A stretch of DNA of 63,847 bases, the filler included, from Dirinaria sp. TL-2023a (taxonomy: Eukaryota), in the NCBI GenBank assembly GCA_051941275.1. It is 29 parts of 29 records of this genome, joined end to end, with 100 filler letters (N's around TTAATTAATTAA, not from the genome) between each part and the next. Parts side by side here need not be neighbours in the genome. Positions count along the whole stretch, not along the records: positions 4,498 to 6,641 come from JAVEBF010002379.1; 28 more parts are not named here. The stretch is one strand, 5' to 3'. A program made the position numbers and the translations under genes. The notes beneath the pieces are model-generated. The model had not been told where the DNA came from. It did no database searches and was given only the letters and a program-made list of their open reading frames with translations. Below are positions 4,398 through 63,847 of the stretch, one piece after another; the first letter of the stretch is position 1, and each line of letters starts with the position of its first letter.

Positions 4398-4497
4398 NNN
4401 NNNNNNNNNNNNNNNNNNNNNNNNNNNNNNNNNNNNNNNNNTTAATTAATTAANNNNNNNNNNNNNNNNNNNNNNNNNNNNNNNNNNNNNNNNNNNN

Positions 4498-4903
4498 TAG
4501 TAGAGTCATCGTCGACGACAATCTCATGAATACGAGCTTTCTGATTAAAGTGCGAGCAGTCATTGACATAGTGATCGACTTCGTCACATTTTCGACAGAT
4601 GATGCGCTCTGAGATATTTCTTGAGATCGAAATATAGAGTCGACTGCTATTGTGAGTTGAGATGCTATCTCGAAAACGCTGTGAATTAAATATAGTGATC
4701 ACAGACGTTGAGTCACGAATAACTGCATTGACTGAAGATCTTAAAGTAGCAGCACTACTTGAAGTCGATACATCTAAACTCGTTTTGGATTTATTGTCTG
4801 CTCGATTTGCTATAAAATGACGTTGACGATTATTCAATTGAGTTAAATACGTTCTCAACTCATTTAGTGTTGTTGTTGCAGAGAAATTATCGATCATAGT
4901 TTT
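4498..4903 (-). mobile_element. Decayed retrotransposon gag with CCHC zinc knuckle (insertion host; continues at 6573-6641)
   Basis: CRKCDEVDHYVNDC fits CX2CX4HX4C. The frame reads through (..KKVLSRMQKT|MIDNFS..) once the insertion and one TSD copy are removed. Confidence 0.8.
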
Positions 4904-5117
4904 TGTTAGAACCGGTGCAGAGTAAGTCAATGCAGGTATAGTTAACTAAGGATATTATCACTAAGAAAGAAAAGAAGAAGAAGAGAAGCTAGATACAATG
5001 GGGGTCTCAGATATATACGCGTGCGAGTGTCGCGTATCCCGATCGAGTTAGCGCGTTACCTCTGAGAACCCTGGGAGATGTTGCCTCAGATAGTATATCA
5101 GATGCATGCTCGTAACA
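4904..5117 (-). repeat. 3' LTR (214 bp, TG...CA)
   Basis: TGTTAGA...CGTAACA; aligns without gaps to 6359-6572 with 18 transitions; abuts the PPT. Confidence 0.95.
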
Positions 5118-5654
5118 CTACCTCTCTCTCCAACAAGTCATGTTCTCATGACTTCATACAAGTCTTATTCCATTGCGCATTATAAGACGTTTGTGAAGAT
5201 TCAATTATTCTAGCAATTCAGTCCATAGTAAGATGTTGTTGTAGATTCAATTTCTAGCGTTTGTATCATGTATGACGACTTCATTCTTCGCTGATTTTGT
5301 ATTCTAATATCCTGATCAATAGATGTTGACTCTGCATCAATGTTGTGTATCTTTTGTAACAGGCCTGCTGTGTGTTGACAATGTAGAAAAGTGTCTGTTG
5401 TAGTCGACTCACTATGTGGGTTGTCTGTCGCGCAGAGCTTTGATAAGATGTCTGAACAGGCCTTGACGATGTAGAAATATCTGCCGCGCAGAGTTTTAAG
5501 AATGTTATGACGTTTGAGCAGACCATGACGCATGAAGATAGAGATTGACGATTTGTCAAATTGTTCGGCGATGCTTCGTTTGCACTCAAGTTTCTCAGCG
5601 ATCAAATCTTTTACATGTTCTTACTTGACGTTGAATTTGATTTCACCGTAACAC

Positions 5655-6305
5655 GAGAATGTCTGAAAAAGTCTTGACGATGTCATTGAAGCAGACTCAC
5701 TGTAAAGAGTGTCTGAACAGATCTTGACGATGTCATTGAAACAGACTCACTGTAGAGAATGTCTGAACAGATCTTGAAGATGTCATTGAAGCAGACTCAC
5801 TATGTAAAATCGAGCCAAAAAAGATTTCTAAAAAATCGATTGTCTGTCGCATCAGAATTTCGTCGCATTCTCTTGATGACACGAATTTTGAACTGTCTGT
5901 CGTATTAGAACTTTATCGACGCATTCTCTAATAACACGAATTTCGCACTGTCTGTCGCATCAGAACTTTATCGACGCATTCTCTAATGACACGAATTTCG
6001 CACAGTTGCTCAATCGTGTAGAGTCTTTTCGCATTCTTCAGATGACACGAACTTGATAATGCAACGATGCTCAAATCACAAGAACAGAGAAACATTATGT
6101 TGCGACAATTGCAGAGATTATACTCGTTCGCAAGCATGACGAGTTTGCAACAGTGCTTCAAAAGAGAAGAACACGATGTTGCGACAATTGCGAAAATTAT
6201 ACTCGTTCGCAAGCATCGCGAGTTTTGATGCAACGATGCTCAAATCACAAAGACAGAAAAACACGATATTGCGACAATTGCGAAGATTATACTCGTCCGC
6301 AAGTA
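5655..6305. repeat. Three internal tandem-repeat blocks of the LTR element
   Basis: About 50 bp x3 (tgtctgaacagatcttgacgatgtcattgaagcagactcact), about 55 bp x3 (ctgtctgtcgcatcagaact...acacgaattt), and ttgcgacaattgc..attatactcgt.cgcaag x3. Confidence 0.85.
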
Positions 6306-6358
6306 TTGCGAGTGTGATCTGAAGTTTACATCCTCAGCTAGATAAAGTGATAATATAG

Positions 6359-6572
6359 TATTAGAATCGATGCAGAGCAAGTCAATGCAGATATAGTTAA
6401 CTAAGGATATTATCACTAAGAAAGGAAAGAAGAAGAAGAGAAGCTAGATACAATGAGGGTCCCAGATATATACGCGTGCGGATGTCGCGTATCCCGATCG
6501 AGTTAGCGCATTACCCCTAAGAATCCTGAGAGGTGTTGCCCCAGATAGTATATCAGGTGCATGCTCGTAACA
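6359..6572 (-). repeat. 5' LTR (214 bp; terminal TG mutated to TA)
   Basis: Direct repeat of 4904-5117. Confidence 0.95.
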
Positions 6573-9500
6573 GTTTTCTGCATGCGCGACAGAACTTTTT
6601 TCTTCAACTTCATCATCACATAGTTCTGCGATATATCGACANNNNNNNNNNNNNNNNNNNNNNNNNNNNNNNNNNNNNNNNNNNNTTAATTAATTAANNN
6701 NNNNNNNNNNNNNNNNNNNNNNNNNNNNNNNNNNNNNNNNNGTCATCAGCAACCACGTCTGTTTCTCGACGAGTCACGAGCGCAAGCCCACAATTCTCGA
6801 ATCACACCCCCCCCTCCTTCCTCCTCCCTCCCCCCCTCTATTATATGTTACCACACTCTTTCAATAATAATAACCAATCCACGTGAATCCTTCCGGCCTG
6901 AGGCACCTAATCGTAACGAGCGAGGCCGATCTACTTATTATTATTGCTTTTTGTGCCGTCCGGGTGTGCGAGAGCAGCTGATTGGCGGAGAGTGCATTGC
7001 AACCATGAAGCAACCAGAGCCGATCGAACAACGGCCGCTAGAGCTAGAGCTGCAGCGATCGGCATCCCTTGCTTCTTACAGGCATGGTCGAAAACGGGAG
7101 TTACCTTACGCGTACCCTTCATCTATCGCTTGATCTTCCCCACCGGGCCGTTGCGATGGGACTGCGAACGTTGCTCAGCCGAGGCAGCCTAAAGCATGTA
7201 TCATGTACCTATGTTGTACTGGACCAAAAAAACCTGCATGCATTTCACAGAGCCTCAACGGGTCGTACACCATGAACGGCATTGAAAGGATCAATGGGCC
7301 CAAATGGTGTACCGAAGTATTTCGATAATCTTATCTCTAATGTCGAGTACGGGGAGGATCGAAATCGAGGTCCGACGCGCACTGGGACCACGTAGCCACA
7401 CCAAACTTCCCTCACCACGTCATTCATCCCATCCTCCGAATCCCTCGGGAAGCATACGAATTCGAACGGACGCTACAAAGGTAGGCTAGCCAATGCCGCG
7501 AGATGGCTCCCGGATGCGAAATCGTCGATTGCGTGAATTGCTCTGTGCCAAAGATTCCAAACCAGGTTTTCTCTTTCGGCTCTGCTGCTGTTCTGCTAGA
7601 TGTATGCACTCGTGCTTGTCCCCCGAACAGTTATCGCTTGACAGTGACAACACTCATGCTATCATTGGAACAGGTAAAGGGCAATTCAGCCGCTTGACTT
7701 AATGGAAATGCTTCTTTGCAAAGACCCGTCTGGCACGACACAATAAGTTCAAATGACATCGCAAATTTAGCGGGCACTGCGTTACCTTATCCTTTGAAAA
7801 TGGTCTACAAATACAGTATGTGCAACGCGTCCTGCCAAGGATAACACTAAGGTACTGGCATCCACACCGCTACTCCCCTCCTCATCCATCTATCTCCTAC
7901 AGCTTCACGGTCCCCCTCTCATGCTTTGATGCGACCGCCTGTCCGCTCAGATCGAAGTCCATAGTAGCTTCCGCTATCATCGATATGCGCTTTTATCTCG
8001 CAGCTCCTCGTAAACAAAAATTGAAGCTCCGCAAGGATTGTTAAAAAGTAAGTCAATAAAGCGAATGCACTCAAGCTTAAGAAAATAAAGAAAATAAAAA
8101 AAAAAGCGCGAAAAGCTTTCGCGTATAAACCTCAAATTCGCTCCTCGGAGAGAGAGCCTCATATTCACCCCTGTCCACACAACCCCCTTCCTTCCAAAAA
8201 ATCTCACCACCATCAGTATAAAAAACATCCTACCCTACATACTTGAAAATCTTCCATCACAGACCAACCTCCCAAGATCCAGCCCACCCTTTTTCTCAAT
8301 TCTTCCCAATAGCATTCCTTTCCCTGCAAAATGTCCCCCCTTTTGTCGTGAACAAGAATATATATAGCTCTGAAACCCTTTATTCCCTGATGAGAAGGAA
8401 AGCGCTTTTGTGTTTTCTTGCCATTGAGGGGGGATTTAAAGGTGAATTGTGATGGGAGGGGATTTTGGTAGGGCTCCTCAACGCACGGGGTGAGGGAGAG
8501 GGGAGCTGTAGATGTAGATGTAGATAGTAAAGTAGAGCGAATAGGTAGGATGGGGGTTCTGAGGGAATGAATGCCTGGGCTAGTATGTGGCGGTTGAGGA
8601 TCTATAGACTGGACTAGGATAGGAAAAGTTTCGAGGTTTTATATAGGGATTAGAGTAGGGTTTTGGTTGTGGGAAAGAATAACTACATGTACTGTGGATA
8701 TAGATGTAATGGTAGATTAGAGTTAATCACCTACCTACCTACCGCCACACACCACCACTACTGACAACTGATAAACTTTTCGCTCGCACACCACGACTAC
8801 CCTCTATCTCTCCTCTTCTCTCTCGTCAAAACTTTGTATAGTGGTGTTCGCTAGATGGAAGATGGAAATTGGAAAATCTCCCCTNNNNNNNNNNNNNNNN
8901 NNNNNNNNNNNNNNNNNNNNNNNNNNNNTTAATTAATTAANNNNNNNNNNNNNNNNNNNNNNNNNNNNNNNNNNNNNNNNNNNNTCGCATAATCGCGAAT
9001 TGCCCTCGGGCATTCTAGCAACAGGAAAGATCTTCAAATACCACAGACTAAATGAAGATTGATGAAAAAGACTATTCTAAGCGAAGCGATAGAGATGGAA
9101 TAAGAAGAAAAATTCAAATGCTAGTAAAGAGTACTCGATATTTATACAAGTATTAGTCTTTGCAAAATCGTTGGCGGTGTAGAAATTTACGCCAATCATG
9201 TATAGCATGAACTGCCATTAGCCATGACCGTGCTTTACTTCTCGGCACTTATTCGAAAAAATTGAGATCCCACGGATTATCTACAACTACGCGTCCATCT
9301 CTATGGTTCAAATAGCGGTACAATTTTCGACAAGATAACTGAAGCGTCAAGACTGTGCATACTACACCTCGTTAACCTGCACAACACCCATCAGTTTTCC
9401 ACAAATTCTGCTCGACGAAACGCCTTAGCCGCCGCCGGGCCGCATATTTGAAAAAGTGGTCTCTCGTATTTCCCCCCCGGATGTGGGCGTCTTCTTCAAA

Positions 9501-13434: not shown

Positions 13435-15552
13435 ATAGACACTACATGCGTCTGATGAATGTTGAAGAATCATCAATATCAAACTTCGTCTTTGCCGCAG
13501 ATACTTCTATTGACAATAACGCAGGGGACAACGAAAACAACAAACCTACATTTCGAGGTGAAAAACAACCTCTCATCTGCATTTGCGGGCATAAACATTG
13601 ATACTTCGAATGTCACTACCTCAATGATGAGAAACGCTCTGTCAATTGAAAATCTAATGAGAGAACTCAGAAGAAGGTTGATGATGCCATGAAGAATGAG
13701 AAGAAAAGAAAGCAGATTGAAAACAACATAGCAAGATCTAAAGAAATACAGACAAAGAAAGTCAAAACCTCTACATCTACCTCTGAGTCTGTCTCAACAT
13801 CTGCTTCAACATCAACCGAAAAAGCAGAAACATTTGCATTCTTTGCATTTGCAACCGAAATCGACGCGCCTCATATTTTGCAGTCCTCATGAATACTAGA
13901 TCACGCGATCAATTTGCACGTTGCAAACAAAGATATGAAGCATCGCTTCATTAAAGAAAAAGACGAGAACGAAACAACGATGTTATCAGACAACGAAAGT
14001 CTTGCAATAAAAGTCTATGACCACATCGATATTAACGTCAAAACATCTACAGAAGACAATATGATAACGTTGCTCAATGTTGTCTATGTACCTGACTTTA
14101 TGATCAACATAGTATCGAGAGATATTCTGAAAGAAAAAGGCGTATATCTTAACACTCGAACTCGACATTTTATGAGAAATGAAGTCCTCATAATAACCGT
14201 TTCTAAGATCGATGACTACTATGTACTGAAACATAATGCACTACATAAAGAGATGGCAGCAACTGCTCTTGCAACTGACTTAACATCAAGCACACGAACT
14301 CGCACTTTAAATGACTGACATCGACTTCTTGCACATGCACACGATGAAGCGATAATGCATTTAGCAACAGCAGTTGAAGAAGTGAAAATTGACGATAAGA
14401 AGTTAGTATCTAAAATAAACAAATGCGAAGAATGTGCACTTTCAAAGACACATAAAATTATATTCAGATCATCAGAAAAATCAGAAACGTCGAACAAACC
14501 TTTTTTTCGCATTATCTATGACCTCATTGACATGACGATTGCTCTGAATAAGGATCAATAAATCTCACACATTGCATGCTCTATGATCGAATTTCATATG
14601 ATATATACTCATCCGCATAAGAGGCAGGCAATCGAAACACTCATCAACGTCATACAAACGATTGAAATTAAATATGAGGTCAAGATAATGTTTGTACGAA
14701 TCGATGACGAGCGTTCACTAGACAACGATTGAGATATCTACAGAGCAAGCAAAGACATTACTATGAAATCTTCCGCATCAGATACATCTGCTCAAAACGA
14801 TTATAGCGAACGCATCGAAGGTATACTTATTTTTAAGTCAAGAATTATGAGAGCTCAAGCAGAATTATCGATTTACTTATGATCATGAATTAATCAAACT
14901 GCCGAGTACCTTATGAATCGCACTTCATCTAAAAAGCATGTCTGAAAAACGTCTTTTGAAATGACAACAAACAAGAAGCCAAACATAGCATATTTAGTGC
15001 AGTTTGAAGCAAAGGTATACTCAATTGAAAAGGCAATACTCAGACGCGAAAAAATAAGAGTCAGAGCACATATCGACTTTCTTGTAGAATACGATAGCAC
15101 AAACATCTATCTCATTTGAATTTCTAGTCAGAAGAAAATTATAAGAACTCGCGACGTGATCTTCGACGAGGATTTCAGCTATAAGTCACACGAAATAGAT
15201 GCAGCACAGCTGATCTCTGAGTCTTTCTTACGAAATGATACACTCGATATTTCACGAAACAACTTCATCAGAGTCACGGAAATTGATTTCGATAGTGACG
15301 AAGACTTATTTGAAGCGCTTACAGACACTATACGCGATGATCAGATATATGAGAAAGCAACAAATACAACAAAGAAAGATACATCAGAATATCTGCTCTC
15401 ATCTGCTTCAACAACTTCAGAAAGCAACACGTTATTTACGTTATCAAGTTCTTTCTCTACTAGTTCGAAATTATCTCAAGCAACAGATGCAGGTTCTACT
15501 CAAGCAACAGATGCAGATTCTACTCAGACAACGAATGCAGACTTTACATCGA
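13435..15552 (+). mobile_element. Ty1/Copia gag-protease-integrase relic, hypermutated
   Basis: CICGHKH*YFEC knuckle; *ILDHAINLH protease; D*HRLLAH...CEECALSK (HHCC); FFRIIYDL, RIDDERSL, QNDYSER integrase core directly after the protease (Copia order); Trp codons read TGA. Confidence 0.92.
15473..15548 (+). repeat. 24-bp tandem repeat x3 inside the Copia relic
   Basis: ctcaagcaacagatgcag(g/a)ttcta units (QATDAGST / QATDADST / QTTNADFT). Confidence 0.8.
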
Positions 15553-31680: not shown

Positions 31681-31926
31681 TGTGGGATCCTAGGCCTCTA
31701 CATATCGGATAGGCCGGGAGAATGACCTAGCACCAATGCGTGCACCGAGAGCCCAGGGAAACCGACCTGTATAGGTCCTGTATGAATGCTAAAGGAGTGA
31801 TGAGGACCTAGATACAAATGCCATTGCTACATATATCGGCGGAGAGCCGCTCACACGTGATCCCTAGCTCCGTGCCCAGCACGCTGTTGCTCTATGGCCA
31901 GGGCTTGCGAGGTCCACTCTCCCATA
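31681..31926. repeat. Probable LTR (246 bp)
   Basis: TGTGGGA...TCCCATA near-perfect terminal inverted repeat; GC-rich; purine tract just upstream; interrupts an integrase relic; no TSD seen. Confidence 0.5.
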
Positions 31927-32474
31927 CTAAGATGACGAGATGTATTTTCATAGTGAATGATAATTCGAGACAAAAAATCAAACGTCTTTTTTCAACGACT
32001 TTAATGATCTGAAATGAATTTACTCGCTGTTAAGATAATTTCTTGTTTAATAGGTCGAGAACTGTGTATTTGACATGCAAACGAAAATATATCATGATGT
32101 CGAAATGTATGTTGTCAAATATTGCTCTGTGAGTTTTATCGTATCTAACTCTGCTAGTCGCACTAACAAATGTCATGACGAATACTATTTTTTTCACGTT
32201 TGATTTGCTTGATTTTGATAAAATTCTTCGCTGACAAGTCTAAAAGTAGTTTCAAAATATCACTTATTTTGAATTCGTAAACAAGCTCATGAGAAGCATA
32301 ATCAATTACTGAATGTGTCACGTCATTAAATTCTGTTTGTAAAAATGAAAGCACGATCGATCAATCGTCTTCTGACTTTGCAGTGAGATGATATCTCAGT
32401 GCAATCTCGATAGTCTGATTTGTTCTTTCGCTTTGGCCATCGGTTTGTGAGTGATATGCCGTTGATGCTACCAT
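31927..32474 (-). mobile_element. Ty3/Gypsy integrase C-terminal relic
   Basis: STAYHSQTDGQSERTNQTIEIALRY matches the Gypsy STAYHPQTDGQxER motif. Confidence 0.88.
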
Positions 32475-44276: not shown

Positions 44277-45720
44277 GTTCAAATATCAAGGAGTGCCGTT
44301 CTTCAATTACAGGATTCAGTAGAGCTCACCCAAGAGAGAGCCATTTGTATGGTCTGTTCCTGGATAAAGGGTTTTCTCATGCGCAGGGCTATGATCACAA
44401 TCTGGCGTCAGTATGGGTACTAGAATCTCTCTCCCGCGAAAGTGAAGCGTCTCAGGAAGCGTTTGCCATGCTGTATATTATCGCTTTCATGGACTCCGAA
44501 TGCATATCGGAAGAGCTCTTGCGGCCGGACCCTAAAAGGAACCAGCTACTCAAATATCCTCACACTGAGCCTGACCTCTTTCAGAGACTCAGAATTCTTC
44601 TAAATGCCTCACTTGTGGAGAGGGGCCCTAGCGAGTCGGACATCAAGGTTCACCGAATGGTTCAGCAAGTCGTCCGTGCAAAAGTTTCAAAAGACCCTCC
44701 CCTTGCTGAAAAAGTTTTTCATGATGTGCTCGCCAGGGTATCAATGTATTGGCCGTACCTTGACCGGATCTTCGTCGCTGGTACGCAAGCGAAAGTAGAT
44801 CTATGGCCGAGATGTGCCGAATTGCTTCCACACGTGTTAAGTGTAAGTCGAGATTATTTCGAGCTCAGAGATATAGGTAGCGTCTCCCAACCGAGTCTTG
44901 ACCTTGCAGAATTGCTTTACGAAGCCTCCAAGTAAGCGAGTAAGCCCTATCATTCACGAAGACTCTCTTTGACTAATTACAGCTATCACATCGAGCGAAA
45001 CGATCCTAGCTAAGCCACGCAGTTGCTCGATCTTGCCTGTTCGATATGTCCCTCCATAAAGGGAAGGACTGATTTGACGGAATACCATCTACGTATATGG
45101 CGAGGCAGGATAGGGGTGGCTTTCTTGACTCGAAATCAGGTCGAATACCACAAACATGCCGAGAAGTGTTACAAGGTCGAAATGGGCTTTTACGAAAAGC
45201 ATGCCCAATTATCCGTTGGGTTGGCAACAGCGAACCTCCACATGGGTATCGCCTACAACATGAAGTCCCTCTATTGGGAAGCAATACCTTTTCTGGAAGA
45301 GTCTGCAAGAGTTCGAAGAGGACTGCCCTGCTTTAAGAACGATTGGCTATTTAGCCCCATGTATCAACTTGCACACTCGCACCTTCATCTTGGGGATTAC
45401 GCCAAGGCTGCAGAGCTCTTAGAAATGGCGATAGACGATCGTTGGGAAGTGCTAGGAGAAAATGACCGTTTTTCTGCGAGGTTAATGAAAACCATTACAA
45501 GGGCGCTTCAGAGAATTGGCATTCACAGGACTGGAGCTCTTTTCTATACGCTTGGCGATGTGAAAAATCATCAAGAACAATTTGATCAGAGTTTATCACT
45601 TTATCTCAAAGTCGAAATTCACTTCAGACTGACAGCAGAATCTACAAATTTGAGAACATTGCATTACGAATTCAAGATGGCGGCTCATTATGCCAGACTG
45701 TGTGATTATGAAACGGCAAG
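44277..45720 (+). pseudogene. NLR-like (post-NB-ARC winged helix + TPR) gene fragment with an in-frame TAA
   Basis: LASVW, IIAFMDSECISEELL, LLNASLV, VHRMVQQVVR, then TPR-like helices. Introns at about 44932-44982 and 45481-45528. TAA at 45011-45013 in the spliced frame. Confidence 0.78.
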
Positions 45721-46465
45721 GTGAAGCTTCCGCTTCCGTATACGTAGGCATGGTGTTGATTATCTCGACGGGACCTGTCTTGACGAAGTCCTTTATCATT
45801 ACGATCTCGAGCCTCATGCACGTCGACACGTATGCTGAGCTGCATGGCTGTACTCACAGTGCCTATCGTCGACTGAGGAGGATTTTCCCCCTCTGCTTGA
45901 TAAAGCAATTCAGGTCTTCAACGAAATTTCACCAAACGATCCAAGGACTGCATATTCGCTGACAGAAATAGATGCTGGGAGCTTAGTCTCGTATGATTAT
46001 CTGTAATATGTGTTGCTGATGACTATCAGATAATGTTGAATATGAAGGTCATTGAGCCGCAATGGCATGAGAATGTGAGGACGGACACAAAAGCGCTTGC
46101 ACATCTTCTGCAAAGATGCAGTACGTGCATTAGCTTGAGTTGGCCTGTTTCTACAGCCTTACCTTAGTCCAACGAGAGGCAAATGTTGTGGCTTATTTCG
46201 AGCCCGCTTACCTATTGATATTCGCCAAGGTCAAAGTTCAAACCCACCCACCTCTCTTTACGATTACCCTGCTTCGATCTTACCGCTGTTGCATTCAGAA
46301 TCCACGTTGATAGAGACCTAAGGTATAAGTTCACCTTGATGTATCCGTTTCTGTGATGCCAAATANNNNNNNNNNNNNNNNNNNNNNNNNNNNNNNNNNN
46401 NNNNNNNNNTTAATTAATTAANNNNNNNNNNNNNNNNNNNNNNNNNNNNNNNNNNNNNNNNNNNN

Positions 46466-49332: not shown

Positions 49333-50494
49333 TTACCATTCGAACTCGCCAGTGGCTTTGTGGAAGACATATCTATGATTATTAGCGAGAGTTTCATGGC
49401 TCTTTGGAGGTTGAAGGCAGGGTATACTCCTTGCCGCCAGTGGTCAAAACCCCGTCTTTCAGGGTACACTTCCACTTGTTCTTTACGCGCGCAACCTTGT
49501 CGTAGGTGCACACCATGATCTGCCCCTGTGGCCCTTCCTCAGGATCCTGTTCCACAATGTTATCGTCCGGGTCGTCTAGATCAGAATTGATCGCATCTTC
49601 ATCATCTTCGAGGTCATCCTCGTCTTTGATCCCGGCCTTGCCTTCGTCGTCCGACTCGCCTAAGCCATCGAGCTGAGGAACCTTCGTTTTACGAGGCGTA
49701 TTACTCGTCTGCAGTGCCGCGTGAGCTTTGTACGAGGATGGCGTAAGTTCAGCAATGGCTACCTTGCGCTTCTTGGCCTGCGGCTGATTGGCTCGCTCGG
49801 ACAGCGGCATCATCAAACCTCCACCTTCCATATCATGGCTCATCTGCTCAAGCCGGTCGCGCAGGGTCAAGTCCGCCTCATGCATGGCATTTGGATTCTC
49901 CAAGGCTGCAGCACGACGCTGAGCAACCATCTCACTCCATTCGCCAGCGCCGTCTGTTTGCGCATTACCCACGATGGGCCTCTGTTGAGCCTGCTGAGCC
50001 TGTTGCATCTGTTGTGACTGTCGCTGGCGTTGCTGAGCGGCGTATTCCCTCCTCTGCTGCTCCGACAGTTGTGGAGGAAGCTGAATATTGCCGGGGTTTG
50101 GCGAGGGCCGTCCGCCAGGGTAAGGACTGTGGGCTTGACCAGTGAGTTGACTCACTTGCAGGTCTGCATCTGTGCCAAACTTCTGCTTCAGAGCCGCTGC
50201 TGCGCGCTGTTGGGCTTCTTTATTGTCGTAGTTCAAGTTCGGCTGATAGCCGCTAAATGCAGGAAGCGGAGAGTGATCGGTGTCGGGTTCAGATTTGATA
50301 CGCACATTCCCGGCACCGGCAGGGGCAGGAGCGGCAGCCGAAGGTGTCTGCGCATTCGAGCTTGACTGTGCGTTGATAGGCTTCGGTCCATTTGAGGGCA
50401 CTGTGGCAGCCATGGGCTGCGGAGGCGGAGGTGCTGGGGTTGGCTCCCAAGGGAAGGATGCGACATGGAGATTGCTGAGCTTCGTCTGCCATGT
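49333..50494 (-). CDS. TOA1: Transcription factor TFIIA large (alpha/beta) subunit, 5' exon(s) missing
   Basis: TWQTKLS, QTDG/QLDG cleavage-type motifs, DAINSDLDD, IMVCTYDKVARVKNKWKCTLKDG. Intron 49373-49427 gives the terminal EYVFHKATGEFEW*. Confidence 0.96.
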
Positions 50495-50623: not shown

Positions 50624-50742
50624 CGGGTCGTCTAGATCAGAATTGATCGCATCTTCATCATCTTCGAGGTCATCCTCGTCTTTGATCCCGGCCTTGCCTT
50701 CGTCGTCCGACTCGCCTAAGCCATCGAGCTGAGGAACCTTCG
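50624..50742. repeat. Exact 119-bp duplicate of 49568-49686 (TOA1 coding sequence) at contig end
   Basis: cgggtcgtctagatcag...gaggaaccttcg is identical at both positions. Confidence 0.95.
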
Positions 50743-52563
50743 NNNNNNNNNNNNNNNNNNNNNNNNNNNNNNNNNNNNNNNNNNNNTTAATTAATTAANN
50801 NNNNNNNNNNNNNNNNNNNNNNNNNNNNNNNNNNNNNNNNNNTATTCGAACGAATATTGCAATCACGTTCAGCAATTGACTCAGCCTTCCTGAGATCCAT
50901 GCACGTCAAGAGCTAGCAGCGGCTTCGGGTCACCTCTTATAGACCGTAGTCATGTAAAGCACGTCGACGAGAGCTTCAAATGATCTCGTGTCTCATCACG
51001 CGAGATCATTCTTTGTAGATCGTAGTCATGCGAAGATCGTCTCTTAACGCGTAATAACCGAGTGTATGTCTTTATGTTTCAATGCTCAAACTCAATCTCA
51101 ACTCTTATTCGTACATTCACGCACACAGCGTTTTTCGTTCGAGACATAACGAAGTCACTGCTCTCGACAGAATCAGAAATCGCCGCTGTCGTCTTTTGAG
51201 GTGAACGAGACCTCTCATCGTTTAGCTATTCTGAATGCGCAGTCAGAGTCGAAGAGTGATAAATTCTTTCAGCCATCTCGCTGCGACTGATTCATGTATG
51301 ACAGAAACTTTCAGCCTTTCGTGTGCGATGTACGCGTGTATAACTCATTCTCAGCGTTTCTAAATCCACGCACAGCACTTCGCGGCTAGTACGCGGTATC
51401 TCAAAACGTGTTTCTTGCGACCGTGACAGAGAGACGACTGCGACGGCAGCAACGAACGCGTACGAAGAGAGAGAAGAAGATAGTTATAATGTTGAAATTG
51501 CGTGCCCTCTCTTCGAAGAATACAGATGAATTGATGATGCGTGTTGTTTTGTATTATCGTTGTCGATCGAGAGAAAGACTGAATTGCTGCGACGATCGCA
51601 TCGTGACGACAACGATGCTAGAACATTTGGCTCTGTTGAGTATTGCAAGCAATACCAGCAGGTTCGTAGCCAGCACCACGTACAGGTAGTCCTTGTCGCT
51701 GGCCGATACTGGGTTTTACGGCAAGCTAAGTGCAGTATAAAGCTAAATTAGCCAGTATTAATACCAGGATTTCTTTCGAGCAACACATGATATAAGTTCG
51801 TACATACGGTAAAAAAGATTTTTCTCCCTCCGCGGGCGATGTGAAAAAGACTTTGGCATTTTTGTATATGTTTGAAGGTTGTGAAACCTTATTATCTAGA
51901 AGTAATAAGGAGGGAAGGTAGGCGTGTAGATCGGGATCTGGACGTGAAAAAAGGCGATTTAGAAGACCTGATCTAAAAGAGAAAGTTGGAGAGGATTTGT
52001 TTTTCTTTCTCTCTGGTTGTTCGGGCTGGTGTTTAATGTGTTCGTCTTCATGAAGTTTGACTGATGGGCCTCTTTCTTGGACAGGGTTGAAACTGTGGGA
52101 CGTTCCTCCTTTCTCCCCAAGGGGGTAGAAGTATATTGGGCGTTTAGATGGGTTGAGCAATTGAGAAGTGAGTGAAGCAAATCGTCTCCGCTTTTAGCTC
52201 TTGGAAGGACTGGCGGTGATGGAATATGCCCAGACAAGTTGGCTGGCGTGCGAGAAGCGGAAAAGGTACTTAAGGTAGGGAAGGTAACTTTTAAAGTGAA
52301 GGAAGACGGGGTATTTGGATTGACACAATGGGTTAAGGGTTTTATTAGAAGTGGTTCCTTAACAGTTAAACTGTCTTGTTCGTAAACTCTCCTCGAAAGA
52401 TTGGAATCATTTGCTGACGTTTCAAAGAGCGACAATCGTTCGGTAAAAACCTCCGCGAAGAAAGAAAGATAAGCGAAATCGCAAATCACCCTTTTACAAT
52501 TCGGGATTGGAGAAGTTGAAGATGTCACTTCTCAGCAACCCCGCTCCTGGAGGGCCATGATGC

Positions 52564-55218: not shown

Positions 55219-57304
55219 CATAATGCTCGTGTGTAATTTGAGCTCATCTCATCTGAGAACGAAATTCTTGATCAATTGAGTTCATTTTGTTCAAGTAACG
55301 ATTGACATGAGCACGAAACATACGTTGTCGTGTTGTGAGATTTAAATTATCGAGATCTCGAGCTGACTCGAAACTCAGATTGAGATGTTGCTCGAAGTTT
55401 GCAAAGAACGAAATGCATTCATTTGACTCAAATACGTGATTATTGATAACAAACTCAGCAGAAAATACTCATACAACTCAATCATTTTGTAAACAAACGC
55501 AGAAAACTTTGAGATACTGTTTCACGATATTATTCAGTCGTTCGTTTTGATCATCTGTTTTCGAGTGATGAGCAGTAAATAATTGAGTTTTGATCTTGAG
55601 TCGTCGACAAAGTTCGTTTCAGAAAACGTTCACAAATTGTGAATCACGATCGCTAATTATGATTTTGAGTAAATCATGAAATTTTCAGACGCAGACATGA
55701 TAAAATTTGAAAACATTCTCGAAAATCAAATCGTTGATAAATTCTACGTGAATTATCTTCGATAAACGATTAGTAACTACTAGCATATTCTCGCAGATGA
55801 CATCTCAGTGATTCTTGCTAAATGAAAAATCAACAACGAAATTCATTGAGATGTGATTTCAGCGACGCTCAGAAATAACGAGAAATTTCAGAGCGTCGAA
55901 GTATTTATTGCGAAAGACTTTGATTCGAGAGCAGTGATGACAGTTACGAGTGAAGCGACGAATGTCGTTAGTCATATCTATTTATCAATAATTGCGGACG
56001 AGGATATCATAAATTTTCGTGACGTCGAAATGATCAGCACTCGAGATATCGTGAGTTAAACGAATGAGTCGAAGACGAAGTTCTTCGTCGTCGAGTATCA
56101 TTATACGATCATTTTCTCAGCGAGTTTCATTGTTGCAAATGGTTTTTTGAGCTCTATATTGTATCTCGTTGTTGATCAAGTGACATTCTGTTAACGAAAA
56201 TTCTTTGATGATAGCGAGATGATCTAAACGTAGTGCTCGACGAACTTTTTTATATAACGAATCGTTTCGTCGAGCAATGTTAAATTGTGTTTCTAGAGAG
56301 ATTTCGACGTTGTCGACAAACGGTGAAGACGATCTTCTGAGAGATTCTGATGAAAACTCGAGCTCGAGCTCATTAAAGATATGAACGTCTTCGTTTATCA
56401 GTTGATCGATAATTTCATCGATCTCTGATGTGATTAAATCGAGGACACGAACTGAAGAGATTTGAATGAAGAAATTATCTTTTTTAAATATCGTTTGTCA
56501 TCTGAAACGATCGTCTTTTTTTTTGAACGAGATTCGAAGCGACTCAAAACATCTGCTGCGACGTTGCTCTTGTTCGAACGATAAATGATGCGAAACTCAA
56601 AACGAGATAGATATTCGAATCAACGAGCTTAACGTCGATTTAAAAGTTTAAAAAACATGAAATACTCTAAATTTTTGTGATCGATGATGATTTGAATAAA
56701 AAACTTGAAGTTTTTCAACTCGTGTCACGGGTTTAGCGCGATAGTGTTGGAGCTCCCTCGGAGGAACCTCGGGAGCGCTAGCGGACGAGGTTTATACTTA
56801 AGCCTCGTCCCCATGTATCTTAGTTCTGCATAGCTAGTATTCTCGTCAATATCATACCTATCTATGCAGCCTAGATCCCTGAAAACTCGAGACGTCATTC
56901 TTTAAAGACACGAATGATAACTAGTAATTTCTTATCGTAAGTTTTATAGTTACATTCGATCGATAACATTGTCTTAGAAAAAAAAATTACTGAGTGAAAT
57001 TTTTGATCGAGATCGATTTGAGACATCAGGTCATCGAGTTTTTCATTCGAAGCATCGATTTCAACGATAATTTTCAGCTCGAGATCGAAATGCTGCAGTA
57101 TAGAGACTGAAATAAAGACTTCTTTTAGTTGATCGAAAGGTGTTTGACAGTTCGAGAATCATAAAAAGAGGCGATTCTTTTTGATGAGATCAACTAAAGA
57201 CTTCACGATTTTACTAAATTTATGAATGAATCGACGATAAAAATTGACAAATTCTAAAAGATTTGTATTTTTTTAAAGATCTGAGATGATTCTCAGTTAA
57301 TAAT
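55219..57304 (-). mobile_element. Ty3/Gypsy pol relic (RT end, RNase H, integrase), interrupted by a solo LTR
   Basis: FVNFYRRFI, VEIDAS, NYKTYDKKLL, IIDHKNLEYF, NVAADVLSR, H..H..CHHC, HISMNFV, IISDRDSQF, TAHHSKTDDQNER. Confidence 0.94.
56723..56884 (+). mobile_element. Solo LTR (162 bp) with 5-bp TSD ACTCG
   Basis: TGTCAC...TGAAA (from TGACA); ACTCG at 56718-56722 and 56885-56889; same family as 63539-63700. Confidence 0.93.
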
Positions 57305-61770: not shown

Positions 61771-63700
61771 CTCGATAAACGAAACATTGAGATCACGCGC
61801 TCGAGTTATTTCTTGAACTATAAGAATCTCGACTCGTTCAAAATCATTGAGATCATTGATAACAATAACGCATATAGACTCGAATTGCTCGAATCGATGT
61901 CGACAATTCACTCAGTGTTTCATTTTTGATTTCTTCATTTAAATTTCCGTCGCTCGTTACGAGAACAGCGTCGTCAACTCTCGTCGTCGATACATATCTC
62001 GAATTATACACATCACGACGCTCTCGTTATAGTGAATTCGCGCATGAACATGCGAAAGAAAGACTTTAAATCGAACTCTACGCGATCGACAGAACAACGA
62101 AGCATATTACAATATCAAATTCATTATGTCGACGATCTCGATTACAATCAATAATCGATCTGACAAAATTACACGAACGCGAAAGAATGCTCGAATCTTG
62201 TAATTGACTTTTATCATGCACATTCAGATAAGTTCGAATCACACTGAAATTTCAAGATCTCGAATGACTGAATTTTATTGAGTTAAAGACATAAGACTAT
62301 CATGCAACGTATGCATAAAAATAAAATTCTTCGATTCGTTAACGATTTATCGAGTGCATTTTAACGTTCTCGCGTATTATTTAAACAAATCTTTATCGCG
62401 AAAACGAACTCGATTAAAGACGATGTATACTCGTATCATAATTAGCATCGTTACTCGAAATCGTTTTAAATATCTCGAACTTATTGACATACACGTAATC
62501 GTTTTGATGAACACATTAAATTTCACTTTATCATTTCGACGAACTCAGTTGATATACGACTTTCTCGAACTCATTTGAAAGCAATTGAAGCACTCAGTTG
62601 AGACACATTCATTATCTAAACGTCTGTCTATGTCAAACAACGCAAATCTATCGTTTGACATCTTTTTATAAATACTAAAGATTCAATCTAATCTCAAAAT
62701 CATGAACATACGTGCATGCGCAAAATAAAACGTCGCATTATAGCGTTTTTGCAAAATATTCTTTTTTGAGATTTTTTTACTAAAGAATGATCACGTTTAT
62801 TACTCGATCAACACTCTCGAAACATAGTCAAAATCGAATTTAGATCACATCTGCTGCTCGGCACGATGCATGATCACATGCGCATATCTTTAGATAGAGA
62901 TGCTCGTCATCGTTATGCGCACGTTTGTTACTCGAATATGCACTCTGAGACAATCAAATTCAAAATCAAATCATTTTCGATACTCGACAAATCGCACTCA
63001 CTCGAAAGCACGTTTTCTGAAGACAGAATCATGATCAATGCATATATGCTCATTACTCGACAGACTCACGTCTATCTCATGATCAAAATTAATTTCGTTA
63101 CTCGAAAACTTTCAAAAATACTTGATCAATGATTTTTTATCTGCTTCACGTTTGTACAGTATTATCATTTTCAATACTCGATTTCGACGTCACAACGAAC
63201 TCTCACGAACTTATTCATCTTTGTTACTCGAAAACTTTTATCTTTTTATGAATATCAGAATTTTTATATCTGATATTAGAATTTTTTCACTCTTATTACT
63301 CGAATATGAAGCACGATCGTTATCAGATTCACTCTCACTACTCTGCGACTGTCACTCTCGTTACTCTGCGATCGTCACTCTCGTTACTCTGCGAACGCTT
63401 TATCACCTTCATTACTCGTTTCTTTCACGCTCGATATTCGACTATTTTCACGTCAAATATTCGAGTATGATCACGCACGCTACTCGACGTTTTTGAGATA
63501 AACTCACGAGAGCTCGCCGTCGTTGAAGAGGGAGATGATGTCACGAGTTTAGTGCGATAATGTTGGAGCTCTCTCGAAGGAATCTCGAGAGCGCTAGCGA
63601 ACGAGGTTTCTACTTAAACCTCGCCCCCATGTATCTTAGTTCTGCATAGCTAGTATTCTCGTCAATATCATATCTATCTATGCAGCCTAGATCCCTAACA
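61771..63700 (+). mobile_element. 3' end of a Gypsy chromovirus: integrase GPF/Y region and chromodomain relic, about 1.25 kb 3' non-coding region, PPT and 3' LTR
   Basis: LDSFKII..NAYRLEL..IHSVFH, LQYQIHY..., FYHAHSDK; PPT GAAGAGGGAGATGA at about 63525-63538; LTR 63539-63700. Confidence 0.9.
63539..63700 (+). repeat. 3' LTR (162 bp)
   Basis: TGTCAC...TAACA; aligns without gaps to 56723-56884. Confidence 0.93.
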
Positions 63701-63847
63701 CGAGACGAAATCATAATCGTCACGATAACACAAAAAACAAAACTCATGTTTCAGACGCATTTTTCATTTTCGTCGAAAATATCGATGAACGATATCGAAA
63801 AATTTATTTATTCACTGCTCATCGAGAAAAACGTTTCAATCACAGAA
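63701..63847 (+). mobile_element. Tad1-like LINE ORF2 fragment (insertion host of the chromovirus)
   Basis: Reverse-complement match to about 53690-53840. Confidence 0.85.

Follow-up and report, generated by a model that had tools for sequence, protein, structure and literature searches.

A footprint of CpC-directed C-to-T mutation in retrotransposon relics of Dirinaria sp. TL-2023a

The subject of this study is a long terminal repeat (LTR) element at positions 4904-6572 of a 63,847-base stretch of DNA from Dirinaria sp. TL-2023a (assembly GCA_051941275.1), together with the transposon relics that share its mutational footprint. The stretch, referred to below as the window, comprises 29 contigs of 2149 down to 2077 bp in descending order, numbered here as they follow one another, and 28 spacers of the form N44-TTAATTAATTAA-N44 (for example 2150-2249, 4398-4497 and 6642-6741); all counts, spectra and controls are confined to these 29 contigs. 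An initial annotation had proposed a repeat-directed C:G to T:A mutator that prefers CpC to the CpA of classical RIP (repeat-induced point mutation) and goes unnoticed by the standard RIP indices, and within the window this core inference is supported.

The LTR element and the changes in its repeats

The whole element lies on the plus strand within one contig (4498-6641) and consists of a 5′ LTR (4904-5117), an interior of 1241 bp (5118-6358) and a 3′ LTR (6359-6572). Both LTRs are 214 bp long; the 5′ copy is bounded by TG and CA and starts with TGTTAG, the 3′ copy starts with TATTAG, and both end in TAACA. A target-site duplication, GTTTT, can be read directly in the sequence on either side (4899-4903 and 6573-6577). 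The interior has no open reading frame (ORF) of at least 150 amino acids and, at its length, is too short for gag-pol capacity; 4904-6572 is a non-autonomous, TRIM/LARD-like LTR element. Its host is an older, saturated relic (4498-4903, resuming at 6573-6641) in which the dinucleotides CC and GG have nearly vanished, with 1 observed against 28.4 expected from base composition to the left of the element and 0 against 5.6 to its right; the corresponding counts are 16 against 21.6 in the 5′ LTR, 18 against 20.2 in the 3′ LTR and 18 against 95.6 in the interior. Several tandem-repeat families occupy the interior, among them at least two whose units measure about 54 bp and about 89 bp (5655-5800 and 6059-6316); in the 89-bp family, 10 transitions and 3 transversions separate unit 1 from unit 3. 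A 35-nt LTR motif, degenerate for purines and pyrimidines, has 0 matches in metagenome contigs.

The gap-free alignment of the two LTRs reproduces what the initial annotation had counted by hand: 18 of the 214 sites differ, all 18 by C:G to T:A transitions, with 0 transversions and 0 indels. The ancestral state was taken as C/G, which the 5′ LTR has kept at 10 sites and the 3′ LTR at 8, and mutations fall on both strands. Read in whichever copy still bears the C, the 3′ neighbour is C at 13 sites, A at 3, T at 1 and G at 1; read in a two-copy consensus restored to C/G, the contexts become 14 CpC, 3 CpA and 1 CpG, exactly as claimed earlier. The same restored consensus provides the number of sites available in each context, of which 14/27 CpC, 3/23 CpA, 1/22 CpG and 0/30 CpT have mutated, a contrast between CpC and all other contexts (14/27 vs 4/75) that is highly significant by Fisher test (p=5.6e-7). 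At the adjacent sites 5026/5027, each LTR copy has one of the two changes.

A second, 162-bp LTR family extends the comparison. One copy (56723-56884, plus strand) is a solo LTR with its own target duplication, ACTCG (56718-56722 and 56885-56889), and is inserted where RNase H meets integrase in a saturated Gypsy relic on contig 26; the other (63539-63700, plus strand) lies on contig 29, with a purine tract before it. The two had been treated as the LTR pair of one element. Since they sit on separate contigs, and since the 56723 copy is solo with a duplication of its own inside Gypsy pol, they are instead two members of one family, and the apparent 6.8-kb 'element' between 56723 and 63700 is broken by spacers and so is no continuous piece of DNA. 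The 12 transitions between them, 8 in CpC, stand as described, while two transversions had gone unmentioned. Normalised in the same way, CpC is mutated at 8/21 sites vs 4/60 in other contexts (p=0.0016). Being younger and less mutated than the old relic around it, the solo LTR also establishes a relative order in time.

The CpC excess thus outlasts normalisation for dinucleotide availability: pooled over both families, 22/48 CpC sites are mutated vs 8/135 others (odds ratio 13.4, p=2.9e-9). CpA is the second context (4/36), with CpT at 2/57 and CpG at 2/42. The 5′ neighbour has a minor effect (mutated/available after A 12/39, after C 9/48, after G 4/48, after T 5/48), and dependence is on the 3′ neighbour. 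Two observations rest on small numbers: among CpC sites a preceding A is somewhat favoured (9/13), and the base that follows the doublet appears to matter, with 3/19 mutated in CC-C vs 7/8 in CC-G, 4/6 in CC-A and 8/15 in CC-T.

Loss of CC and GG from transposon relics

The signal in the window as a whole is far larger than the initial annotation had stated. Eight contigs (3, 7, 9, 17, 22, 25, 26 and 29) have nearly no CC or GG, with 2 to 68 occurrences per ~2.1 kb; elsewhere the counts are 153-335, except in contig 15 (127), which is itself affected in part. Odds ratios in the eight are 0.02-0.44 for CC, 1.1-2.3 for CpG, about 1.0-1.2 for CpA, 1.40-1.66 for TC, 0.67-1.17 for CT and 0.46-0.69 for TA. 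Expressed as occurrences per kb relative to normal contigs, CC stands at 0.12, CT at 0.82, TC at 1.20 and TT at 1.58; CA at 0.95 and CG at 1.04 confirm that CpA and CpG are retained, as had been noted in the relics. TC accumulates and CT does not, and it follows, independently of the LTRs, that it is the 5′ C of CC that changes. A matching CpC bias in single-copy DNA would speak against a repeat-directed process, and the 16 gene-bearing or otherwise normal control contigs are free of it (CC odds ratio 0.82-1.12).

Across the five contigs that are saturated, all 78 of the 78 tetramers that contain CC or GG fall below 0.5x, while the k-mers above 2x are generic A/T-rich words and a handful of tetramers with CpG, TCGA for example. 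What is specific is the depletion, and a screen for enrichment would presumably miss the CpC target. CpG tetramers flanked by A/T (TCGA, ACGT, AACG/CGTT and ACGA/TCGT) reach 2.6-3.4x in contigs 17, 22, 25, 26 and 29, where the CpG odds ratio is ~2; a CCGG with both outer cytosines changed reads TCGA. CpG appears to be fully protected in saturated repeats, which argues against a decay driven by CpG methylation.

These dinucleotide counts also bear on ultraviolet (UV) damage, that is, photoproducts at dipyrimidines in the unrepaired heterochromatin of a sun-exposed thallus. CpC and CpT are both dipyrimidines, and the relatives of this organism are lichen fungi. TC is the main UV context. In the affected contigs it is enriched (1.20 per kb, odds ratio 1.40-1.66) rather than depleted, CpT is hit at only 0/30 and 2/27 sites in the two LTR pairs, the adjacent sites 5026/5027 have changed one per copy, borders are sharp and genes are spared; the TC enrichment contradicts the idea, and we give it hardly any credence.

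Wherever an affected stretch has an identity, it is a retrotransposon: Copia and Gypsy relics recognised through Pfam, and LTRs with target duplications. The most informative is a Ty1/Copia gag-protease-integrase relic on contig 7 (13435-15552, plus strand), which matches Pol_BBD and SH3_retrovirus in one frame with 10 in-frame stops, the relic frames having been translated with stops as X for the Pfam search. A search with 13437-15551 found 4224 homologues, 40 long ones of which were aligned, and changes were polarised at columns conserved in at least 60% of them. Of 170 such columns 59 have changed, 42 in ways explainable by C to T or G to A alone and 17 not, and the inferred contexts of the changes are CpC 34, CpA 6, CpT 3 and CpG 0. 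A pattern search of metagenome contigs with the Copia relic gave 59 matches, none confirmed as a relative.

The residues lost are those that the initial annotation had named. Against the 40 homologues, Trp is kept at 0/6 positions (all now TGA), Gly at 2/15 (usually replaced by Asp/Glu) and Pro at 3/14 (usually by Ser), while His (7/9), Arg (11/13) and Cys (6/8) are largely kept. Among the stops, TGA dominates over TAG as had been described, with TGA 9, TAA 1 and TAG 0 both in Copia and in the integrase part of the Gypsy relic; the RT/RNase H part of the latter has TGA 2, TAA 2 and TAG 1. This Ty3/Gypsy pol relic (contig 26, 55219-57304, minus strand) matches RT_RNaseH_2 (5.9e-17) and Integrase_H2C2 (8.6e-11) and is the one interrupted by the solo LTR. 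Since a single Copia coding strand carries both C to T changes (Pro to Ser, 10) and G to A changes (Trp to stop, 6; Gly to Asp/Glu, 10), both DNA strands have been targeted.

Strand and context together decide on a further alternative, an AID/APOBEC-like editing of retroelement complementary DNA (cDNA) during reverse transcription. APOBEC3G acts on single-stranded minus-strand cDNA, where it deaminates the second (3′) C of CC and thereby causes strand-specific GG to AG changes. The window shares with it the CC motif, the C to T change and the targets, every one identified being a retroelement. It differs in that the 5′ C changes (GG to GA) and TC, not CT, accumulates, in that the Copia coding strand shows both strands mutated about equally, and in that, within an integrated element, the LTRs have grown apart through mutations in each of them; the action is thus on both strands and after integration. 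Context is set by the 3′ neighbour, the 5′ neighbour being uninformative (9/48 after a C vs 21/135 after other bases). Editing of cDNA is contradicted on these grounds and seems highly improbable.

A pair of saturated repeats on contig 17 (35500-37595, minus strand; CC+GG 7 in 2096 bp) and contig 22 (46466-48554, plus strand; CC+GG 2 in 2089 bp, 33% GC, CC odds ratio 0.02, CpG odds ratio 2.29, the most extreme case) represents two copies of one sequence in reverse orientation, with a match of 1606 bp at 77.8% identity that contains 276 transitions and 55 transversions. A 'Tad' label previously attached to them finds no backing in the searches made (Pfam 0 families, PDB 0 matches), although an RT-like motif may be made out by eye. 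In their restored consensus the differing fraction is 23/25 for CpC, 116/183 for CpT, 58/187 for CpA and 61/268 for CpG, the CpT figure being confounded because a CpC whose second C has mutated in both copies scores as CpT. The secondary CpT preference that had been suggested is accordingly unproven: CpT is, with CpG, the least hit context in the young LTRs (2/57), and the old relics have only a mild CT deficit (0.82).

Four repeat relationships are visible among the affected contigs. Saturated relics further include contig 25 (53031-55118), in which 53694-53840 matches 63701-63847 in reverse orientation, and, by its CC/GG counts, the part of contig 29 upstream of the 162-bp LTR (61771-63538). 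Three contigs join depleted to normal DNA. In contig 9 (17865-19976) the depletion rises from left (47 vs 67 expected) to right (21 vs 89); contig 15 harbours an island of 506 bp on the minus strand (31925-32430) with CC+GG 1 vs 26 expected between flanks of 84 vs 77 and 42 vs 64; and in contig 24 a depleted left part (50843-51600, 21 vs 78.5) meets a normal right part (132 vs 134.8). The borders are sharp in contigs 15 and 24, and depletion is confined to transposon-derived stretches.

These junctions are at odds with the view that no mutational process has acted here and that we are looking at an assembly or sequencing artefact, at foreign DNA from a mixed sample, or at transposons natively poor in CC. 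There are grounds for caution, in that the window represents the tail of short contigs in a fragmented assembly, contains at least one probable artefact of assembly (an exact terminal repeat of 119 bp) and comes from a lichen-type fungus whose sample may have been mixed. Contigs 9, 15 and 24 nonetheless unite depleted and normal DNA, bona fide Copia and Gypsy relics are altered precisely at Trp, Gly and Pro codons relative to homologues, and the LTR pair of one element displays changes that arose in place. All three versions are contradicted by this evidence, and there is very little chance that any of them is correct.

How the footprint relates to classical RIP can be judged from the standard indices, for which RIP is indicated by TpA/ApT above 0.89 and (CpA+TpG)/(ApC+GpT) below 1.03. 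TpA/ApT is 0.45-0.86 over the 29 contigs and 0.51-0.72 in the affected ones, and the composite RIP index lies below zero in all 29. Canonical CpA-directed RIP was rejected on these negative indices and on the LTR spectrum (CpA 4/36 vs CpC 22/48). The indices stay negative because no TpA is produced and CpA is not consumed. The RIPCAL CpC index, (CpC+GpG)/(TpC+GpA), separates the affected contigs (0.006-0.185 in eight) from the rest (0.39-1.15), and the contention that standard indices miss these relics holds.

A proposed RIP-like process and its alternatives

The reading that we favour, at a probability of roughly two in three, is that a RIP-like mutator converts the 5′ C of CpC in repeated DNA, at least in retrotransposons. 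Such a mutator would act after integration on both strands of double-stranded chromosomal repeat DNA, converting C:G to T:A with a preference for a C followed by C, so that CpC becomes TpC and, on the other strand, GpG becomes GpA. Repeated rounds would drive repeats to saturation, leaving old relics of ~33-36% GC that are essentially without CC/GG and in which CpG and CpA survive; coding capacity would be lost through TGG to TGA (Trp to stop), GGN to GAN (Gly to Asp/Glu) and CCN to TCN (Pro to Ser). The logic would be that of RIP: directed at repeats, restricted to transitions, affecting both copies and both strands, and sharply bordered. What is seen agrees with this for transitions (which make up 18/18 changes between the two LTRs of the element and 12/14 in the 162-bp family, with a direction that agrees with the homologues) and for copies and strands (the LTR pair and the Copia coding strand).

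In this reading, the trigger would be sequence duplication, the stage would be the sexual cycle and the enzyme may be a homologue of the RID- or DIM-2-type DNA methyltransferases with altered target recognition. For enzymes of the DNA methyltransferase type, as for RIP, the base that is read lies 3′ of the target, and for AID/APOBEC deaminases it lies 5′; it is this trait that suggests a RID-/DIM-2-type enzyme. A more specific version, in which a lichen-type ascomycete lineage has a defence mutator whose intrinsic specificity is 5′-[C]C-3′, be it a re-specified RID/DIM-2-type enzyme or a different one, possibly acting on the G of GG, is held tentatively and at slightly less than even odds. It would clear repeats of every CC/GG but keep CpG and CpA, with relics of moderate GC that CpA-based RIP detection does not see.

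Several observations weigh against the favoured reading. In the 4904-6572 element, depletion is strong in the interior (18 vs 95.6) but slight in the LTRs (16 and 18 vs ~21 expected), and a uniform process after insertion is by itself insufficient to explain this contrast. It is possible that the family went on transposing with a decayed interior, so that the survivors are copies with functional LTRs; alternatively, mutation may be weaker toward the edges of repeats. All identifiable targets are retroelements, and another trait, such as heterochromatin, could therefore be the trigger. All contigs are short, and only in contigs 9, 15 and 24 is depleted DNA physically joined to normal DNA. In contig 15, moreover, the depletion ends inside what is apparently a single integrase, which might reflect a chimeric contig or a mutation tract limited to a duplicated sub-segment. 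Finally, other Lecanoromycetes are reported with RIP on the basis of CpA-based tools or a drop in GC, and the trait would thus be lineage-restricted.

The integrase on contig 15 is itself a putative assignment: by eye the island resembles, on the minus strand, the C-terminal portion of an integrase of Gypsy type (...STAYHSQTDGQSER... motif), and Pfam returned 0 families for the minus-strand frames of this contig. The island begins abruptly on the left, next to normal GC-rich DNA, and fades to the right, on the minus strand up to ~32520.

The alternative closest in its predictions is methylation-driven decay, in which DIM-2-type, CpC-preferring methylation of heterochromatic repeats is followed by deamination of 5-methylcytosine, be it spontaneous or assisted, over mitotic time, with neither homology sensing nor a sexual stage. 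Its footprint would be identical, that is, transitions only, on both strands, confined to transposons and dependent on the 3′ neighbour. Methylation-dependent C to T mutation of repeats outside RIP has reportedly been observed in Zymoseptoria. In Neurospora crassa a second RIP pathway depends on Dim2, according to a 2025 survey (PMC12543289). Set against this are a CpC saturation of ~100% next to flanks that are untouched over a few bases, which calls for a very high and tightly bounded rate, and the young LTR pair, 8.4% diverged without any other substitution, which fits bursts better than slow decay. We consider such decay unlikely.

A lesion on guanine presents a different case, because the data cannot separate a C followed by C from a G preceded by G. 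An alkylation-type modification, chemical or enzymatic, of the 3′ G in 5′-GG that mispairs with T in poorly repaired or targeted repeats would produce the same change, and C to T at CpC and secondarily at CpT resembles the signature of SN1 alkylating agents; the mild CT/AG deficit of the old relics (0.82) is in keeping with it. Diffuse damage, on the other hand, should not spare flanks sharply, nor genes, as seen in the CC odds ratios of the 16 control contigs, and CpT is not elevated in the young LTRs (2/57), which makes such a lesion a very unlikely cause.

To place the favoured CpC-directed, RIP-like mutator among known systems, it is best compared with the RID- and DIM-2-dependent RIP of N. 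crassa. The two have in common an exclusive C:G to T:A change in repeats and transposons, action on both strands and copies, a 3′-neighbour context, saturation by repeated rounds, sharp borders and the loss of coding through stop codons. In N. crassa the order of contexts is CpA>CpT>CpG>CpC, and in Trichoderma reesei CpA and CpG lead and CpC comes last (PMC5496416); the target seen here is thus the one least preferred in Neurospora, a reversal of the order in these experimentally studied systems. Further differences are that no TpA is produced and no CpA consumed in the window, and that saturated relics stay at 33-36% GC.

RIP of the Trichoderma reesei and Aspergillus/Penicillium types likewise illustrates that dinucleotide preference differs between lineages. 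CpG is co-preferred in Aspergillus/Penicillium RIP. In T. reesei it leads together with CpA, unlike in the window, where CpG is the best preserved context (2/42 in LTRs, 1.04 per kb, odds ratio up to 2.3). Outside the ascomycetes, transposons of Pucciniomycotina such as Microbotryum undergo TpCpG hypermutation, in which the mutated C lies in a CpG after T. This is a RIP-like, context-specific C to T change in transposons with a non-CpA target, as is the case here, though in a different phylum; TCG accumulates in the affected contigs (1.61x) and CpG is spared (2/42 mutated), and the basidiomycete process was ruled out for these reasons.

A CpC-dominant repeat mutator is not reported in the full-text literature that we searched, where several matches to 'CpC' proved to be strain codes, names of software or figure legends, though Clutterbuck's 2011 survey of ascomycetes, outside that search, may hold a precedent. 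In 2025, a kingdom-wide survey covering 1,239 genomes came to the conclusion that a CpA preference is common to RIP-like defences (PMC12543289); elsewhere CpA is described as prominent and other neighbours as minor (bioRxiv 10.1101/344036), and CpC declines in two species, yet with CpA to TpA predominant (PMC5737583). Lichen fungi offer a further comparison, being related by lifestyle and in two cases by class, and have transposon-rich compartments degraded by C to T change. Repeats of Endocarpon pusillum have classical indices of 1.47 and 0.70 (PMC3897900), relics of Cladonia rangiformis fall to 10-20% GC in the presence of RID and DIM-2, with no context given in the excerpt (PMC12542154), and RIP regions of Xanthoria were called with RIPper (bioRxiv 10.1101/2025.11.25.690456). 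Unlike in those fungi, the classical indices are negative here and GC stops at ~33%; a CpC target is absent from the available parts of their reports.

A CpC-specific process would be a clear exception to the CpA rule of the 1,239-genome survey (PMC12543289). If the more specific version set out above, with its intrinsic 5′-[C]C-3′ mutator, is true, the generalisation of a shared CpA preference would be wrong for part of the fungal tree, and some 'RIP-negative' calls would be false negatives. In most cases RIP is sought with indices that rest on the conversion of CpA to TpA, so surveys could misclassify such lineages as being without repeat-directed mutation. Methods that look for a drop in GC or for AT isochores would under-detect the relics as well, because these keep CpG and a moderate GC content. 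The existing RIPCAL index (CpC+GpG)/(TpC+GpA) separates the relics cleanly. De-RIP reconstruction in such genomes would have to restore TC to CC and GA to GG, not TA to CA/TG. A natural variant in specificity would also offer a way to learn where in the RIP machinery the neighbouring base is recognised.

Gene content and affiliation of the window

The gene-bearing contigs encode a histidyl-tRNA synthetase (HisRS), TFIIA, a zinc alcohol dehydrogenase, an AAA ATPase and a DUF7779+TPR protein. The closest homologues of the HisRS fragment are 76-82% identical, lichen-forming or rock-inhabiting ascomycetes reaching ~70% at best, and the fragment places the fungus, as judged from protein similarity, in the Pezizomycotina. 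For a fast-evolving ORF of 600 amino acids, the named matches, at 30-39% identity, are nearly all Lecanoromycetes (including Toensbergia, Trapelia, Lobaria, Schaereria, Cladonia and Physcia). Lichen-forming Lecanoromycetes are thus the closest relatives with a name. No DNA methyltransferase is found among the 17 scanned ORFs of at least 150 amino acids in the window.

The contig with the TFIIA gene holds a 119-bp repeat of 100% identity that is free of mutations (49568-49686 and 50624-50742, 1056 bp apart). Its second copy stops precisely at the contig end, and the repeat resembles an overlap from de Bruijn-graph assembly rather than a biological duplication. At 44345-45724, on a contig of normal composition, two neighbouring ORFs have DUF7779 and TPR_12 repeats, a C-terminal architecture that we take to be typical of fungal NOD-like receptor genes.

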